Below, piece after piece: positions 37,190-46,814 of a DNA stretch of 50,701 bases. A model generated the notes under the pieces. That model did no database searches, was not told where the DNA came from, and saw only the letters and a program-made list of their open reading frames with translations. Every line of letters starts with the position of its first letter. Position 1 is the stretch's first letter. Origin of the DNA: Bacteriovoracia bacterium (lineage in GTDB: Bacteria > Bdellovibrionota > Bacteriovoracia > Bacteriovoracales > Bacteriovoracaceae); NCBI GenBank assembly GCA_046570105.1, contig JBKHVI010000015.1, forward strand, positions 1-50,701, written 5' to 3'. The translations under genes were made by a program, and so were the position numbers.

Positions 37190-39232
37190 CTAGAGATCTG
37201 GTGGGTCAATAGCGTCAGCACATGCGTCTGGTGCATTAGGATCGAAGCTTGGATTTAGCCCTGGCGGAGGTGGCTGACAGACACCGGCACGGCAGTCACC
37301 AAATTCTTGTGAGTTGTAACAGCGCTTAGCACAAGTGATATTTCCTTGAGGGTCAGTACCCGTTTTCACAATATAGCAGTTAGTCACGTTGGACTTCTGA
37401 CACCATTCTTTAGCAATACAGAATTGCCCATACGGCTTGTTACACAAGACCGGTGGATCAAGACGATTGTCATGAACACTGCATCGGCCAGTTGAGGTAT
37501 TACAGCATAAGCTTGAACACTCAAAATCAGACGCACAAGCGGCACCAATCGGAGAATTCCCCACCGTCGGTGCTTGCTCTACACATTGAGTAACTAAATC
37601 AGTACTCCAACAACGTTGGTTATAACAACACTCGCCGCTGCCACACTGATTTGAATTGCTGCAAGATTTGAAATTGCTATAAAGATACTCTTGGTTTTCA
37701 CCAGAAATTTGCGTTGGACGCACTAACTGCAAAATAACCTCTTTGGTTTCTGCCATGACAATGTCGACACCCTCATCATTGGTGGCGAGAATTTCAATTT
37801 TTCCTGAAGCATTACATGAACCGATGTGCTCACCTTGGAAGTTCACACTTTGCACGCGAAGGTTACAGCCATCGACTAACTCAGTGGCACCACCTGATGC
37901 TTGTGTCGCGACATCTTTCGTATTGAGATTGGCCTGCTCAGTTTTCAGATACTTCACGTTCGTTGGCAGATCCATATAGGAGAAGCGCGGGAATTGTTTT
38001 GAGATACTCAAAGCTGCCGAGTCCATTTTAGTTGCAAATGAACTACCCGGCATAACCATCTCTAGGGCCGAGAGCGGTGAATCAGATTCAAATAGACCAT
38101 ATGGGCTGAAGACAGCTTCACCCGTCACTTCCCAATTGGCCGCGTTGATCGGCTTAAATGGACCATGGTACTTGAGTGCCTGAGTGAACAGTGCGGTTCC
38201 GCCGGCATCACGAAGTACGAGATTTTTTTGCTGATTGAATAATTCAAAGAATAGATCTTCTACACCAGTGGCCGACGTGGCATTGGAAACACCGCTGGCA
38301 ATCCAAGTCACAGGATAAGTCGGAGAACCCACTTGCTTATCTGGCAAACAGCGATTCATCAAAGTGTCTGTACTCTGATGATAGTAACCGCGCTTATCAA
38401 CGGTTAAATCGATTTGTGGTAAAGTAGGAAAGACTGTTGTTTCAGTCGCGCCACTTACACGCGTAAGTGCGCGGTCAACCACTTTGGCATAAGTATAAAG
38501 ACAGCGCTCTTCTGGATAAGCAGTCCCGTTAGCATACTTACCATCACAAGCACCTTGACCATTAAAAGTCGGATCATCTTGTAAACGTAATCCACGGCAA
38601 TAAAGATGCGGATCACGGTTAGTTTCTACCGGATCAGCAATTGTGGTCGGATCAAGCGGATCAGTCGGTTCGTAATCACGATAGTCGTACAAATCATAAA
38701 TCAAACGTTGGTCATCAAATGGTTTATTTCGCAGATCCATGACGAGCACATCAATCTCAGTATTCGGTGTAATACCCGGCGCGCGTGCGACTGTCGCAGG
38801 TACCGTCACTTGTTCACGTGAAACACCAAAGGTGAAGCGTACTTTCACGAAACGATTCTGGAGTGAGTTGATGTTGATCCCACCTAAGTACAACAGACCT
38901 TGGTAGTTTTTTGGAAGAGTCAGTTTACGAACATAGGAGCCAGCACCCGAGAGACCGGTGCCGGTATAATAACTTGGATAATCACCTGTCGTGATTTTAG
39001 GTTCGACGAGATTTCTGATTTCAACTTTCGGAGCAACAGCAGTCGCACCACCACTTGAGCCTGAAGTGGTGCCCACACCTACTCCACCACCCGCCCCTGA
39101 AGTCGTACCAGGTGCTACGACTGAGCCCGGCAACTGTCGATTGGGAACTGTTTCGGAAATACACGCGGAAAGACCCAAGCACATGGCCAGCATCGTTGCG
39201 GTATGTTTGAAAGAGTTTTTCCAGAATTCCAA
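37190..39232 (-). CDS. Large lipoprotein with Gly/Thr linker and Cys-rich C-terminal repeats
   Basis: Lipobox LSAC; repeated C-x4/5-C-x3/4-CC-x4/6-C modules; GAGGAG SD before TTG start. Confidence 0.82.
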   Translation of the reverse strand: MEFWKNSFKHTATMLAMCLGLSACISETVPNRQLPGSVVAPGTTSGAGGGVGVGTTSGSSGGATAVAPKVEIRNLVEPKITTGDYPSYYTGTGLSGAGSYVRKLTLPKNYQGLLYLGGININSLQNRFVKVRFTFGVSREQVTVPATVARAPGITPNTEIDVLVMDLRNKPFDDQRLIYDLYDYRDYEPTDPLDPTTIADPVETNRDPHLYCRGLRLQDDPTFNGQGACDGKYANGTAYPEERCLYTYAKVVDRALTRVSGATETTVFPTLPQIDLTVDKRGYYHQSTDTLMNRCLPDKQVGSPTYPVTWIASGVSNATSATGVEDLFFELFNQQKNLVLRDAGGTALFTQALKYHGPFKPINAANWEVTGEAVFSPYGLFESDSPLSALEMVMPGSSFATKMDSAALSISKQFPRFSYMDLPTNVKYLKTEQANLNTKDVATQASGGATELVDGCNLRVQSVNFQGEHIGSCNASGKIEILATNDEGVDIVMAETKEVILQLVRPTQISGENQEYLYSNFKSCSNSNQCGSGECCYNQRCWSTDLVTQCVEQAPTVGNSPIGAACASDFECSSLCCNTSTGRCSVHDNRLDPPVLCNKPYGQFCIAKEWCQKSNVTNCYIVKTGTDPQGNITCAKRCYNSQEFGDCRAGVCQPPPPGLNPSFDPNAPDACADAIDPPDL

Positions 39233-39904: not shown

Positions 39905-39978
39905 AGGCACCCTTGACTCCCGGGGAGTCGTCTCCATATTGTTTGACACAAATTTACCACATTGTTTTGGAGGACTCC

Positions 39979-41829
39979 ATGGCCCGTTCAGGTAGCATCT
40001 CAGTAAAAACCCAAGACATCTTCCCGATTATCAAAAAATGGCTTTACTCGGAGCATGATATTTTCTTGCGCGAGCTGGTTTCAAACGCCTGTGACGCCAT
40101 CACCAAACGCCATGCTTACGCTCGCACAGAAAACCTCGAGGCCCCGGAAGGCAGCGTCGAAGTCATAGTCAATAAAACGGCTGGAACTATTGTTATCAAA
40201 GACAACGGCCTTGGTATGAACGAAGCCGAAGTCGAAAAATATCTCGCGCAACTCGCCTTCTCGGGTGCTGCGGAATTCGTAGAGAAAATGAAAGCGTCGG
40301 GCCAAGACTCTGACGTCATCGGTAAATTCGGTTTAGGTTTCTACTCGGCGTTTATGGTGGCCGATGAAGTCACCGTTGATACTCTTTCCTACAAAGAAGG
40401 TTCAACTCCCGTGAAGTGGACCTGCCAAGGGGACGTTGATTACACTTTTGATACGGGTACTCGTACCGAAGCCGGTACAACCATCACTCTTAAAGTCAGC
40501 GAAGATTCAAAAGACTTCTTAAACAAATGGAAAGTATCTGAGACTTTGCGCCGCTACTGTGACTTCATGCCGTGGGACGTATCCGTTCTCGATGCTGAAG
40601 AAAAAGACGCTAAAGCGGAAGTCTTTAACGAGAAAGTTCCTCTGTGGAAAAAAGACCCTAAAGACATCACGGATGATCAATATAAAGAATTCTATCGCAA
40701 ACTCTTCCCAATGGATCCAGAACCTCTTTTCTGGTTACACTTAAATGTCGATCATCCTTTCACATTGCAAGGGATTCTCTATTTTCCAAAAATCAATTTG
40801 CAAAAACCGATGCAAGAACAAGGCATCAAGCTTTACTGCAAACAGGTTTTTGTTTCTGACTCAGTTAAAAACGTTCTGCCTGACTTCCTCACCCTTCTCA
40901 AAGGTGCGATGGATTCAACTGATATCCCGCTGAACGTGTCGCGTTCAGCTTTGCAAGGTGACCCGAACGTTAAAAAGATCGCTAACTACGTTATTAAGAA
41001 AGTCGCTGAAGGTATCAAGAAGCTTGCGAACTCAGATCGCGAACGCTTCAACAAAGTTTGGGAAGACATTGGCCTATTCGTTAAATACGGCTGTGTCTCT
41101 GATCCAAAGTTTGATGAGCTCGCACGTCCCTTTGTTCTTTTCAAAAACTCTGAGAACAAACTCGTAACTCTCGCCGAGTACACCGAGTCGATCCCAGAGA
41201 AGTACAAAGAAAAAATGAAAGAGAAAGTTCTCACACACGATATGCAAAATGGTGATGAGTCCCTTCGTAAACAAATGCTCTCAGAAGGTGTGCATGCCAT
41301 CAGCCTTGATCAAATGATTGACCCGCATTTTACACAGCATGCGGAAATGCATGCACAAGGTGAAGTGAAGTATAAGTTCCTCACTATCGAAACAGAAATC
41401 GAAAATCTTCTCGAGACAGCTCCAGTAGGCGCCGATGATTTGAAGATTGGCGATTTCTTCAAAGAAGCTTTGGATGCAAAACCAGAAACTCTTGATGTAG
41501 AAGTCAAAGGTCTAAAGAACGCAACGACACCAGCTTATTTTAAAGTTGATGAGTCGATGAGACGCTTCCAGCAGATGACGAAATCGATGGGACAGAACTT
41601 CCCGATGCCTTTAAAGAAAACTTTGGTAGTGAACCCTACTCACCCCTTGGTTCAAAACGCCTGGAAATTGTCAGAGGGTAAACACAAGGAACTCGCGAAG
41701 AAGATGGTCACCCACGTGCAGGATCTCGCGACTCTTTCTAGCGAAGGTTTGACCGCTGAGAACAAAGAAGCCTTCGTCGCTCGCTCGCAAGCTTTGATTC
41801 AAGAACTCTCGGGCCTAGCACTTCATTAA
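39979..41829 (+). CDS. htpG: Chaperone HtpG (Hsp90)
   Basis: LYSEHDIFLRELVSNACDA, DNGLGM, IGKFGLGFYSAF, DIPLNVSRS; start moved to ATG 39979 behind a GGAGG SD. Confidence 0.97.
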   Translation: MARSGSISVKTQDIFPIIKKWLYSEHDIFLRELVSNACDAITKRHAYARTENLEAPEGSVEVIVNKTAGTIVIKDNGLGMNEAEVEKYLAQLAFSGAAEFVEKMKASGQDSDVIGKFGLGFYSAFMVADEVTVDTLSYKEGSTPVKWTCQGDVDYTFDTGTRTEAGTTITLKVSEDSKDFLNKWKVSETLRRYCDFMPWDVSVLDAEEKDAKAEVFNEKVPLWKKDPKDITDDQYKEFYRKLFPMDPEPLFWLHLNVDHPFTLQGILYFPKINLQKPMQEQGIKLYCKQVFVSDSVKNVLPDFLTLLKGAMDSTDIPLNVSRSALQGDPNVKKIANYVIKKVAEGIKKLANSDRERFNKVWEDIGLFVKYGCVSDPKFDELARPFVLFKNSENKLVTLAEYTESIPEKYKEKMKEKVLTHDMQNGDESLRKQMLSEGVHAISLDQMIDPHFTQHAEMHAQGEVKYKFLTIETEIENLLETAPVGADDLKIGDFFKEALDAKPETLDVEVKGLKNATTPAYFKVDESMRRFQQMTKSMGQNFPMPLKKTLVVNPTHPLVQNAWKLSEGKHKELAKKMVTHVQDLATLSSEGLTAENKEAFVARSQALIQELSGLALH

Positions 41830-41843
41830 AGTTCTTCATTAAA

Positions 41844-41908
41844 GTTCCAACACTCTTTTACGTAAGCAATGCACAAAACGCAGAGCTTACGTAAAAGTCA
41901 TTTGGAAC
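41844..41908. repeat. 65-bp palindromic REP-like element, copy 1
   Basis: GTTCCAA...CTTTTACGTAAGC-17nt-GCTTACGTAAAAG...TTGGAAC; 55/65 identical to 46670-46734 by manual alignment. Confidence 0.85.
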
Positions 41909-42147
41909 CTTCTCAAAGTTAAAATGACATTTATTTCGATTCAGAAAAACGCCAAAGGCATTTCCTTGATTGCTATTTCTAATATCAGTAGTCCAATATT
42001 TTGGAGTGTTAGGAATAAAAATGATGAGCTTTTTCGTAAGGTACAAGCTATCTATCAAAAGTAGCTTATTGGGTCGCATTAAACAGAAGACCTTTTGAAA
42101 ATAGAAATTCATCTCTGAAAAACTAATCAAAACTAGTCACATCAAAC

Positions 42148-42183
42148 AGAAAACCCAGCTCGAGTTGTTATACACAAGCTGGG
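42148..42183 (-). terminator. Intrinsic terminator on the minus strand
   Basis: Minus strand CCCAGCUUG...CGAGCUGGG 9-bp stem (one G-U pair that forms only on this strand) followed by UUUUCUGUUU. Confidence 0.7.
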
Positions 42184-42229
42184 CTCTTCTATGATCGCCA
42201 ATGACGGCGACCTTTAACTAAGGAAATTC

Positions 42230-42304
42230 ATGGAGGAGTTGTTAAGGGTTCTTGCTCTTATCATCATCTTGTTACAGCTCGCTGTAATGTTGAAGATGGT
42301 TTGA
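42230..42304 (+). CDS. 24-aa hydrophobic peptide MEELLRVLALIIILLQLAVMLKMV, candidate type I toxin (TisB/DinQ-like)
   Basis: AAGGA SD 5 nt upstream of ATG; single TM-length helix; own terminator 10 nt after the stop. Confidence 0.65.
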   Translation: MEELLRVLALIIILLQLAVMLKMV

Positions 42305-42314
42305 TTCGGATTTG

Positions 42315-42347
42315 GGGAAGGGAGCAGCAACTCCCTTCCCACCTTTT
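42315..42347 (+). terminator. Intrinsic terminator of the small peptide gene
   Basis: GGGAAGGGAG-CAGCAA-CTCCCTTCCC perfect 10-bp stem followed by ACCTTTT. Confidence 0.75.
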
Positions 42348-42364
42348 CAACTTTCCACAAATCT

Positions 42365-42394
42365 ATTCTATGTATCTTTTGAAATTGAGCGCAA
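42365..42394 (-). promoter_or_regulatory. Candidate sigma70 promoter for the antisense RNA
   Basis: Minus strand TTGCGC-N18-TAGAAT. Confidence 0.45.
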
Positions 42395-42462
42395 GCATTT
42401 TGAACAAAACTCAATAACGCGCAACGATTAAGTTCGAATTTCCTAAAAGTAGCTGACACCTT

Positions 42463-42945
42463 TTAGCCGGCAGTTGGATCAAGTTCGGGCTCACCCATCT
42501 TCACACTCAAATTGCCCGTTTGATCTTCTTTACCACCCAAACGGCCACCGCTATTGATGGCAAAAACATTACTGCCAGCAAATTTCACCGAATGACGGTT
42601 ACCGTGAATCATTTGCTTTTCGCCACGCTCTTCTTCTTCTTTACAGTGAATACAAAGAGTCGCTGTAGGACGAGCACTCAAGCGCGATAAACCGATTTCC
42701 GCGCCACAGTCCTCACACTCTCCGAACTGACCTGCTTGAATTTTATCAAGCGCGTATTTAACTTTCTTAAGATAGACCGAGTTGCGCGACTTCAAGCGCA
42801 GATCCATCTGCTGTTGTTTTTCCTGGGTGAAAGTATCGATCTCATCACCACCGATGATTTCGGTGAGGACGTTCTCGGTAACAAACTCTGCGCCCAAGAT
42901 ATTGAGGAACATTGTCTTGAAACCTTCGATCTGTGACTTCTCCAT
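42463..42945 (-). CDS. TraR/DksA-family C4 zinc-finger protein
   Basis: GDEID coiled-coil tip, FGECEDCGAEI..RL.ARPTATLCIHCK; start moved to ATG 42945 behind a GAAGGAG SD. Confidence 0.9.
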   Translation of the reverse strand: MEKSQIEGFKTMFLNILGAEFVTENVLTEIIGGDEIDTFTQEKQQQMDLRLKSRNSVYLKKVKYALDKIQAGQFGECEDCGAEIGLSRLSARPTATLCIHCKEEEERGEKQMIHGNRHSVKFAGSNVFAINSGGRLGGKEDQTGNLSVKMGEPELDPTAG

Positions 42946-42969
42946 AACAACTCCTTCTTTTTCCATCAT

Positions 42970-43079
42970 GCCCAAATCCTTCTGGGCCTTTTTGTTTCCC
43001 CTACCAATCCTTGGCGGGGGCCAATCCTTTGGGAAGCTTCGGTGGAGATCCCTCTCCTAGAGTGTCTCATCCATGAGAC
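42970..43079 (-). promoter_or_regulatory. Array of GGA-loop hairpins in the leader (candidate CsrA/RsmA binding sites)
   Basis: GUCUCA-UGGA-UGAGAC, CUC-UAGGA-GAG, GGAGA-GGGA-UCUCC, CCAA-AGGA-UUGG, CCA-AGGAU-UGG, GCCCAGA-AGGA-UUUGGGC. Confidence 0.65.
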
Positions 43080-43104
43080 CCCCTCAGCTTCGTGCCAACA
43101 CTAG

Positions 43105-43121
43105 AGCAGGAACGATGCCAA
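43105..43121 (-). promoter_or_regulatory. Sigma54 (-24/-12) promoter candidate
   Basis: Minus strand TTGGCATCGTTCCTGCT with GG-N10-GC spacing. Confidence 0.65.
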
Positions 43122-43270
43122 GTTTGGCCTCATGAAAAAACTGGGGGTTACTCATAACGCAGGTGTCAAACAGGCCTTATACGGGCCAAAGAGACACTGG
43201 GGCAGGGACAAAAAGGTCTAACCTAAAATGACTTACAGTGAGGAATTCTAAGATGTTAGATGTCGTTTGA

Positions 43271-43561
43271 TTATGATGCGGCCCTTTTAACGACCAAATT
43301 CACACCTAATATGAGTGCCACCTTGGCAATAAAATCTAAGCTCACCTCGCTCACTAGGCCTGATTCCATGCGAGCGATAGCCGGCTGCTTTGTATGGCAA
43401 AGACTCGCTAAAACACTTTGAGATAGACCTTGAGCTTTTCGAGCTTTGATCAATTTTTCAATCATAAGTTTCTTTTGCTTAACAAGATCCATTTCCACAT
43501 CACTAAGACCTAAAAATGCACCAAACTCTTTAGCGCTTTTGAATTTGATATTTTTCTTCAT
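43271..43561 (-). CDS. XRE-family HTH antitoxin (HigA-like)
   Basis: ARKAQGLSQSVLA...TKQPAIARMESG HTH; ATGA overlap with the upstream toxin gene. Confidence 0.85.
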   Translation of the reverse strand: MKKNIKFKSAKEFGAFLGLSDVEMDLVKQKKLMIEKLIKARKAQGLSQSVLASLCHTKQPAIARMESGLVSEVSLDFIAKVALILGVNLVVKRAAS

Positions 43562-43875
43562 GCAATCCCCCTTAAGCGTTGCTTGAGTAATCGAATGGTC
43601 TGCTGTTGCATCTTTTGCGATTTTTTTACAGCAGCATGAATTACATAAATCGCTTCTTTGACCCTTATTACGTAGAAGACCCTTAACTCTCCGGACACGC
43701 CAGTTAATCTAAGTTCATTTAATCCTGGAGCAATACTTGCGAGAGATCTGGAAATTGGCATTTCAAGTTTTTTGCCTCTCGAGAGATCTTCAAAAAGTGA
43801 ATAGATATCTTCTGAAAACTCTTTAGGGCATCTCCTCAGCTCTCTTTGTGCTTGCTTGAGTACAACAATCACCAC
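43558..43875 (-). CDS. RelE/HigB-like type II toxin (Gp49-like)
   Basis: MPISRSL..GLNELR...LRVFY...IYVIHA..KKSQK pattern; toxin-first order; GTG start (43875 or 43872) behind an AAGGAG SD. Confidence 0.82.
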   Translation of the reverse strand: MVIVVLKQAQRELRRCPKEFSEDIYSLFEDLSRGKKLEMPISRSLASIAPGLNELRLTGVSGELRVFYVIRVKEAIYVIHAAVKKSQKMQQQTIRLLKQRLRGIA

Positions 43876-43890
43876 GGCAACTCCTTTAAT

Positions 43891-43906
43891 ATAACGCATT
43901 CGTTAT
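43891..43906. promoter_or_regulatory. Palindromic operator of the TA operon
   Basis: ATAACG-CATT-CGTTAT, overlapping the spacer and -10 of a minus-strand TTTACA-N17-TATATT promoter-like sequence (43888-43916). Confidence 0.6.
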
Positions 43907-46598: not shown

Positions 46599-46814
46599 TT
46601 TCTTCTTAAGACAACCTTCCCCATATCTTTGCCAGTTGAATCGAAGTATTGCTCAAGGTTCTGCTCAAGGTTCCAACACACTTTTACTTAAGCAAAGCAT
46701 CAAACGCAGCGCTTACGTAAAGGTGTGTTGGAACTTAAATAAATGAGATTCTTACCGATCAGTTTCTTCTTAAGACAACCTTCCCCATATCTTTGCCAGT
46801 TGAATCGAAGTATT
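46581..46814. repeat. Perfect 70-bp direct repeat (46581-46650 and 46745-46814) flanking a 94-bp insert
   Basis: GAGATTCTTACCGATCAG...GAATCGAAGTATT identical in both copies; includes the 3' end and stop of the 46759-47553 gene. Confidence 0.95.
46670..46734. repeat. 65-bp palindromic REP-like element, copy 2
   Basis: GTTCCAACACACTTTTACTTAAGC-17nt-GCTTACGTAAAGGTGTGTTGGAAC near-perfect 24-bp inverted arms. Confidence 0.85.

Follow-up and report, generated by a model that had tools for sequence, protein, structure and literature searches.

A conserved membrane-peptide cassette with an overlapping antisense unit: a predicted type I toxin-antitoxin family in Bacteriovoracaceae

Can a 24-codon reading frame lodged between two convergent genes be the toxin of a toxin-antitoxin system of type I, and if so, to which of the known systems is it closest? 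The window analysed here is the whole stretch of 50,701 nt at positions 1 to 50,701 of contig JBKHVI010000015.1, from a Bacteriovoracia bacterium, and the original prediction had placed such a locus in it. We found that the layout of reading frame and antisense unit is real and conserved, and we put at roughly three in four the probability that the cassette represents an undescribed, chromosomal type I family, of which the toxicity and both RNAs are predicted. The type I reading gains support from the spread of the cassette in several and in tandem copies, from its coding signal and occluded start, and from the conservation of the antisense promoter. The cassette sits between convergent htpG and dksA-family genes, in the following setting:

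39913 to 41829, plus strand: htpG (Hsp90; PF00183), the left neighbour, outside the module
41828 to 41910, no strand assigned: palindromic repeat of about 85 nt, left insertion edge, 3' of htpG
42445 to 42464, no strand assigned: REP-like palindrome, right insertion edge, overlapping the dksA stop
42463 to 42975, minus strand: dksA/traR-family gene (PF01258), the right neighbour, outside the module

In a genome of the same genus (G005), htpG and dksA are parted by nothing but a short bidirectional terminator, i.e. an empty site, and the 633-nt interval of the window, bounded on both sides by a repeated palindrome, thus resembles an insertion. The left palindrome has an 81% match at 46655-46734 of the window and a partial match on contig C61, and the right one is repeated in G000, the genome of the window, on C16, C26, C54, C76 and C121. 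REP-like palindromes flank 27 of 75 cassettes, against 4 of 479 intergenic windows, by a pattern that was built in-sample. A sigma-54 reading of the GGCAC repeats was rejected: the spacing is wrong by eye and the repeats are REP-like. The window itself carries the 85-nt repeat twice (41828-41910 and 46655-46743). About 1 kb from the cassette lies a type II pair, a Gp49/RelE-like toxin with an HTH antitoxin (43271-43899, minus strand). Elsewhere the window holds a TPP riboswitch (RF00059, 14816-14912, plus strand) and a predicted lipoprotein of 680 aa with a Cys-rich C-terminus (37190-39232, minus strand) that has no match in Pfam.

The original prediction had proposed a search for conserved or paralogous ORF-plus-hairpin units in relatives, and these are plentiful. 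A peptide profile matches 59 of 237 genomes of the window's family (Bacteriovoracaceae, going by the record labels), with 1-9 matches each, and 31 of the 145 genomes at 90% completeness or more; genome G000 has four (on C15, C1, C10 and C61). In a sample of the phylum, 12 of 100 genomes within the family had matches and none of 300 in the other families. The homologous loci are labelled mostly Bacteriovoracaceae, with one each of Bacteriovoracia, Halobacteriovoraceae and Proteobacteria. No cassette was found in phage records, plasmid records or viral contigs, and judging from the libraries searched the cassette appears so far restricted to Bacteriovoracaceae. Copies are intergenic and single or in tandem, with a unit of about 300-360 nt. 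The 71 flanking ORFs, for the most part housekeeping genes or unmatched and in a few cases parts resembling type II systems, include no shared neighbour, and the cassette lies beside dksA only in G000 and G007. The paralogues of G000 are 59-71% identical, with a longest identical run of 7-15 nt. This divergence is compatible with silencing by the cognate antisense RNA only, as described for Sib/Ibs in the accessible part of PMC2943612.

Genome-derived copies were found via the peptide profile and are hence intact by selection. A profile-independent test used a DNA pattern of leader plus ATGGA on metagenomes, which returned at least 122 stretches, to which four viral ones were added. Among the matches listed, 108 were distinct and 52 had both the anti-start element and the Shine-Dalgarno sequence (SD); a hydrophobic ORF of 21-31 aa followed in 38 of these 52, against 1 of the 56 others. 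Among 53 leader-defined metagenome copies, again from the matches listed, 40 are intact, 2 borderline, 3 cut by a contig end and 8 broken, by deletion of the hydrophobic stretch (3), frameshift (4) or a nonsense codon (1), although some of these may be assembly errors. The antisense promoter, by a strict pattern, is kept in 5 of 10 copies with a broken ORF. Since the copies are related, all such counts overstate independence. Decay on the toxin side speaks for the type I reading, and the orthologous copy of G007 shows another kind of it, an IS481-family element that parts leader from ORF within the SD-hairpin loop:

L028:886-2166 (G007): inserted element of the IS481 family, each end of which carries a short direct repeat

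The ORF at the centre of the cassette is present and reads as had been proposed:

42230 to 42304, plus strand: ORF with coding signal for a hydrophobic 24-aa peptide, a putative membrane toxin

The peptide has an acidic N-terminus, R6, a 15-residue apolar core with Q16, and K22 (GRAVY 1.95; best 19-residue Kyte-Doolittle mean 2.44). We compared 85 distinct intact ORFs of 23-27 aa, of which 62 encode 24 aa with Q16; as these rows were chosen as intact, their absence of stops counts for nothing. Variation among the 24-aa ORFs is biased to the third position, with conservative substitutions. Entropy at codon positions 1, 2 and 3 is 0.60, 0.28 and 0.99 in the 62, and in 40 of them sampled pN/pS is 0.35 in frame +1 against 0.48-2.3 in the five other frames, the low value of frame -2 (0.48) being put down to a shadow cast by frame +1. 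Judged from these alignments, the comparison shows an ORF under codon-level purifying selection. Net charge is 0 in 72 of the 85 distinct ORFs, and R6, L10 and Q16-L17-A18-V19 make up an invariant face. Some codons are fixed by RNA structure, and in all 62 ORFs Q16 is CAG and A18 is GCT. There are two subfamilies, one of 24 aa with a hydrophobic moment of 0.13, to which the window peptide belongs, and one of 26-27 aa with a moment of 0.34.

The window peptide had no match in Pfam, NCBIfam, PHROGs or PDB sequences, and ESM Atlas features gave no usable match and were uninformative. Nine of ten family sequences are missing from a collection of 15 billion proteins, the sole one present being a 45-aa read-through: the peptide is invisible to gene callers. 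A copy of G002 (L035:1438-1572) lacking the usual stop reads through to 45 aa. Two other reading frames were considered and rejected. The AUG of the leader loop is no conserved uORF, its frames being random and the codon missing in 15 of 86 copies, and no minus-strand ORF is conserved, lengths there scattering from 0 to 60 or more.

If the peptide is a type I toxin, its mRNA should hide the start of translation. The predicted mRNA, 42181-42352 on the plus strand, would contain these elements:

42184 to 42194, plus strand: anti-start strand, lying in the predicted fold opposite 42228-42238, which holds the AUG and the first codons
42195 to 42210, plus strand: leader hairpin, whose loop of 6 nt hardly varies
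42211 to 42224, plus strand: hairpin of anti-SD CCTT and SD AAGGA, from sequence and predicted fold
42262 to 42298, plus strand: two stacked ORF-internal helices, an outer helix and the TTACAGC/GCTGTAA stem, with compensatory changes
42315 to 42340, plus strand: GC-rich 3' hairpin of 10 bp, candidate 3' end or terminator of the mRNA
42341 to 42352, plus strand: 3' tail, in long-range pairing with codons 3-7 (42238-42247)

This RNA folds with a z-score of -5.3, and none of 200 dinucleotide shuffles folds as well. A 49-pair structure, drawn from the alignment consensus and scored on 60 copies, is 92% paired, against 46-53% when slid; compensatory events were counted on a tree. The automatic consensus fold gave the leader, ORF and 3' helices and missed the anti-start and long-range ones, all helices being recovered on gap-trimmed columns. 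Occlusion of the SD had been attributed to a CCTT at 42211-42214. It does pair with AAGG at 42220-42223 in the predicted fold, but it is not the main occluder: this is the weakest conserved helix, 79.5% paired, with three compensatory events. In our model the main occluding helix is formed by the 5' anti-start strand, which had been missed. At least 9 of its 10 pairs are contiguous in 63 of 78 copies, against 21 of 1560 shuffles; it shows no compensatory event because its partner is invariant, and its variants (60 G-U against 13 A-C) favour the plus strand. Shuffling the leader lowers the pairing of the start region in 77 of 78 nascent folds and in 76 of 78 full ones, and cutting the leader raises the region's unpaired probability from 0.29 to 0.52. 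Modelled in this way, the mRNA structure would bury both SD and AUG. In many copies (L205, L189, L082, L200 and others) the anti-start element occurs twice; the distal one persists where the proximal one is degraded, and the box described below lies about 12 nt further upstream.

The other helices have left clearer traces of covariation. The leader hairpin is 97.7% paired, with three compensatory events against a null of 0.08. Its loop (42200-42205 in the window) is nearly invariant here and in the homologues, and in a few copies reads AUGGA, which we take to resemble a CsrA site. The inverted repeat TTACAGC/GCTGTAA reported inside the ORF is indeed there, at 42272-42287, and the outer helix has two-sided changes at 6 of 7 pairs and 14 compensatory events (null 0.3). 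The 3' hairpin has two-sided changes at 8 of 9 pairs and 21 events (null 1.0). It had been called a perfect 10-bp terminator; the hairpin is perfect and followed by ACCTTTTC, but the terminator scan made no call, and only 15 of 78 family copies pass a hairpin-plus-U test at this site. The long-range helix, whose strand 42341-42352 read on the minus strand is also the 5' end of the predicted antisense RNA, has 13 events (null 0.44), one column pair occurring in four Watson-Crick forms. Its wobbles favour no strand (15 G-U, 13 A-C), and in the window copy it is found in the minus-strand fold and absent from the plus-strand minimum-energy fold. Ratios of G-U to A-C favour the plus strand in the anti-start (60:13), ORF outer (37:4), ORF inner (16:0) and 3' (53:22) helices.

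On the other strand, the cassette has what we regard as a unit of its own:

42365 to 42394, minus strand: sigma-70-type antisense promoter TTGCGC-N18-TAGAAT, from family conservation
42148 to 42358, minus strand: predicted antisense RNA of about 211 nt between promoter and terminator, spanning the whole predicted mRNA
42148 to 42187, minus strand: strand-specific intrinsic terminator at which the antisense RNA would end, with its stem at 42154-42183 and its U-run at 42153-42150

The promoter had been described on this strand, and it is found at 42394-42365. Taken alone it is at chance level: a strict scan of 41000-43600 finds no promoter, and a loose scan places it among 10 sites scoring 8-9 of 12 within 660 nt. 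The argument comes from the family. In the 75 of 87 copies with enough sequence to be scored, 58 have TTG plus TAnnnT on the minus strand (shuffles: mean 2.4, maximum 8; plus-strand control: 0), 44 an extended TG and 45 a spacer of 17, across unrelated contexts and orientations. On these comparisons, family-wide conservation of the promoter is not chance. The predicted RNA, 42358-42148, covers the entire ORF at 42230-42304 and folds with a z-score of -6.9, none of 200 dinucleotide shuffles doing as well. Its terminator is strand-specific here, as had been proposed (-24.6 kcal/mol on the minus strand, -14.3 on the plus strand), but it is not a family trait: such a terminator lies upstream in only 15 of 78 copies and 63 have no intrinsic one. 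The strict scan called neither this hairpin nor the 3' one a terminator. In public RNA data (contigs from four of 19 runs) coverage goes no further than dksA, from this or related organisms, and leaves out the cassette, which decides nothing.

What would drive the toxin mRNA? Two further elements lie upstream:

42106 to 42121, plus strand: box TTTCA-N5-GAA, putative activator site, about 70 nt 5' of the inferred mRNA start
42171 to 42176, plus strand: putative -10-like element (TA, 49 nt after the box), in the antisense terminator loop

In the window the box takes the form of a TTCA-N4-TGAA palindrome (42108-42119). It scores above 8 in 65 of 82 copies, against 3.8 in shuffles, with a matrix trained on the same set. 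Of the 75 copies that score above 6, 67 have it at -122 to -140 from the ATG. A TA recurs 48-50 nt downstream of it across cassette copies, and the mRNA would start near 42181-42184. A plus-strand sigma-70 promoter was found in 6 of 76 copies, below shuffles (9.7), and the box may act as an activator site. Among intergenic box matches of G000 that face a gene on the same strand, 22 of 67 have the TA, where other offsets give about 11.5 (p 0.001). Of 20 such G000 genes behind box and TA, 9 are toxin-antitoxin-like or mobile, namely 3 RAYT-like transposases, 2 RelE/ParE, BrnT, 2 weak PIN and ORF6N, with BrnT and ORF6N alone passing curated cut-offs; 20 random control genes include 2 mobile ones and no toxin-antitoxin gene (p 0.015, or 0.043 with the RAYTs counted once). 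As AT-rich acquired DNA could inflate this enrichment, the association is a lead only. The promoter region of one RelE gene is visibly homologous to that of a G007 cassette, and no box lies upstream of the Gp49/RelE-like pair of the window. The genes concerned are:

G000, contigs C63, C62, C2 (L226, L230, L237), C76 (L229), C57 (L241) and C56 (L239): genes behind box and TA
G000, contigs C46, C12 and C98: further genes behind box and TA

Control by the SOS response was considered and rejected: the box is absent upstream of recA, and a LexA-like repeat is absent from the cassettes. The repeat in question is a direct one; two copies precede lexA, and one each precedes recA and a further gene that, we presume, reads like umuD:

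G000, C3:17057-17105, C18:26196 and C65:2605: TTACGG-N5-TTACGG repeats before lexA, recA and the third gene

It is a candidate for the LexA box of this genome, and its half site occurs in only 3 of 86 cassette flanks. The published Bdellovibrio LexA motif, a palindrome in the portion of PMC8565304 available, differs from both the repeat and the box. A WYL activator was searched for in G000 (88% complete) and none was found.

Small (20-60 aa) hydrophobic ORFs under selection, SD and start sequestered by mRNA structure, and repeated or tandem intergenic copies are hallmarks of the type I class, and all three occur here, the second in the predicted fold. We infer toxicity from this architecture and from a weak peptide likeness discussed below. 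The mechanism might run as follows. The antisense RNA would be made constitutively and pair with the mRNA of about 170 nt, leading to decay by RNase III and to interference from convergent transcription. The toxin promoter would depend on an activator bound to the TTTCA-N5-GAA box, and the primary mRNA would be translationally shut, its 5' anti-start strand probably being trimmed before it is read. Once the antisense RNA is titrated out by the mRNA, the peptide would insert as one inner-membrane helix, N-terminus out and C-terminus in. It would self-associate, in the way proposed for TisB, via Q16 and the opposite charges of its ends, and would depolarise the membrane, with stasis or death as the outcome.

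The alternative that fares best is a small membrane protein that is not toxic but controlled by antisense RNA, tuning a membrane partner under the activator. MgrB and AcrZ are small membrane proteins with such a role. The invariant face and low amphipathicity of the 24-aa form would suit it, as would the fixed activator-like box. Yet a tuner would hardly be expected to lack any conserved neighbour, to be patchily present in 1-9 near-redundant copies and tandem arrays, to be silenced at several layers, or to lose its hydrophobic stretch recurrently while leader and hairpin are kept, and we consider it unlikely. It is quite improbable that the minus-strand RNA is the main product, as a trans-acting sRNA or structured non-coding RNA, with the ORF secondary. 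Third-position-biased variation with conservative substitutions, the kept SD and start, the plus-strand wobble bias of four helices and the separate plus-strand box all argue for a translated mRNA, even though the sole clear promoter is on the minus strand and is kept in several ORF-broken copies (the 5 of 10 above), the minus RNA folds best, and the CAG and GCT codons are fixed by RNA structure.

The original prediction had itself named an alternative, that the antisense side is a mere 3' UTR of the dksA-family gene, the hairpins being its terminator. Where G005 has its bidirectional terminator the window has the insertion instead, so that transcription of dksA may run on to 42148 here, and such read-through may add antisense RNA at this locus. 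For the family the explanation fails and is very improbable: the cassette adjoins dksA in just two genomes and the promoter is kept elsewhere, whatever the neighbours, so that the antisense RNA is not just this 3' UTR. Finally, a chance ORF within a palindromic repeat or MITE, a thought invited by the REP-like palindromes that often flank the cassette and by the strong folding of such repeats in general, is scarcely credible, being largely refuted by the coding signal and the pattern-based ORF test (38 of 52 against 1 of 56 among the matches listed), and having to account for two oriented promoter elements.

We return to the type I reading and to what it might mean. A bolder joint version of it, which we hold to be rather doubtful as a whole, would be a predator-specific type I family that combines a ShoB/TisB-like peptide with a full antisense RNA of Ibs/Sib kind, is carried about as cargo between REP elements, perhaps mobilised by RAYT transposases, and answers to an activator other than LexA, with a box that is shared by RAYT transposase and type II toxin genes. 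If true, one stress regulon would couple genome mobility to membrane-level dormancy in predators. The shared box is the most promising lead of the cassette: it points to a non-SOS regulator and opens a way to asking under what conditions a predator would shut itself down, the usual sticking point of type I work. Moreover, about 85 natural variants in weakly and strongly amphipathic subfamilies offer a ready series for studying helix toxicity, and allow one to ask whether the likeness to ShoB and TisB reflects descent or convergence.

We found no report of a type I system in Bacteriovoracaceae, in a literature where subscription papers, the T1TAdb tables and one supplement of PMC2887945 could hold such a prediction. 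Searches pairing type I toxin-antitoxin with Bacteriovorax gave nothing, nor did those with Bdellovibrio among the matches listed; Halobacteriovorax with toxin-antitoxin gave unrelated papers only, by title and the beginning of the abstract, and RAYT with a type I toxin gave none. In the accessible part of PMC2887945, B. bacteriovorus HD100 has no known type I locus and one 54-aa candidate, and Bacteriovorax is absent. Few lineages are known to have type I systems, according to the available portion of PMC12390103. As Bdellovibrionota were formerly placed in Proteobacteria, calling this a new phylum for such systems hinges on taxonomy.

Which known system is closest depends on what is compared. 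No Rfam family describes the locus, at gathering thresholds or at E<=10. The peptide had been called TisB/DinQ-like, which does not hold for the window peptide, as it has no significant match; the order-specific likeness of the family is to ShoB, then to TisB, and mainly in the 26-27-aa subfamily. These likeness tests tried five toxins and concern low-complexity helices. With the whole-family profile they are barely above chance (TisB 54, ShoB 73 and DinQ 205 of 1000 shuffles; 31-205 over TisB, ShoB, DinQ and Ibs), while ungapped whole-family scores single out ShoB (1 of 200 shuffles). The long subfamily is matched by 0 of 2000 shuffles for ShoB and 18 of 2000 for TisB, and DinQ is not above shuffles (380 of 2000). 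The hhalign probability against ShoB is 33% for all members and 68% for the long subfamily, which gives 46% against TisB.

With ShoB the family shares an R-V...L-Q-L register in which Q16 aligns to Q20; it differs in its acidic N-terminus and basic C-terminus, and the locus has no match to the ShoB/OhsC models of Rfam. OhsC also lies 5' of its mRNA without overlap, as do, in position, the antitoxins of TisB, DinQ and Zor (PMC8594479, in the part available), whereas here a convergent antisense promoter lies 3' of the ORF. The similarity to ShoB-family peptides could be convergent. TisB and DinQ share with the family a single helix with Gln on the polar face and a shut primary mRNA. In TisB, Q19 is in register with Q16, and the moment of 0.35 is close to the 0.34 of the long subfamily; the 0.13 of the 24-aa form makes a TisB-type pore doubtful for that form. 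Two of 76 members match TIGR04459 (E 4e-4 and 0.012; 20 and 15 bits, with a cut-off of 38), and the window peptide matches neither this model nor PF13939. IstR-1 and AgrB do not overlap their mRNAs, as the predicted antisense RNA here would. Furthermore, tisB is LexA-controlled (PMC8309996, as far as its accessible text goes), whereas the LexA-like repeat of this genome is missing from the cassette. Profile searches of the family peptides turned up no Zor model.

Toxin mRNAs of the hok and aapA type use a fold-back mechanism. The cassette resembles AapA/IsoA and hok/Sok in the long-range pairing of the 3' tail that closes the mRNA, but the tail here pairs with codons 3-7 rather than the 5' end, and the family peptide has no Cys or basic tail and no match to their Pfam or Rfam models. 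The AapA/IsoA antisense RNA overlaps the ORF, as here (PMC8594479, same portion).

The overlapping layout had been likened to Ibs/Sib, and this comparison holds up best. By prediction the antisense RNA extends over the entire ORF and the start region, as in Ibs/Sib (PMC8594479, same portion); copies are multiple and in tandem; the ibsC mRNA of about 160 nt, given in the accessible part of PMC2943612, is similar in size to the predicted one of about 170 nt; and both peptides are short, weakly amphipathic helices (moment 0.13-0.16). The differences are that RF00113 matches neither this locus nor seven homologous ones (142-148 bits for the E. coli control), that Ibs peptides have 18-19 aa against 23-27 here, with no alignable similarity, and that Sib RNAs have 144-145 nt against about 211 predicted here, mostly without a terminator of their own. 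The cassette thus fails the membership tests of each group, and its sequence suggests a layout like that of Ibs/Sib joined to a peptide chemistry perhaps like that of ShoB and TisB.
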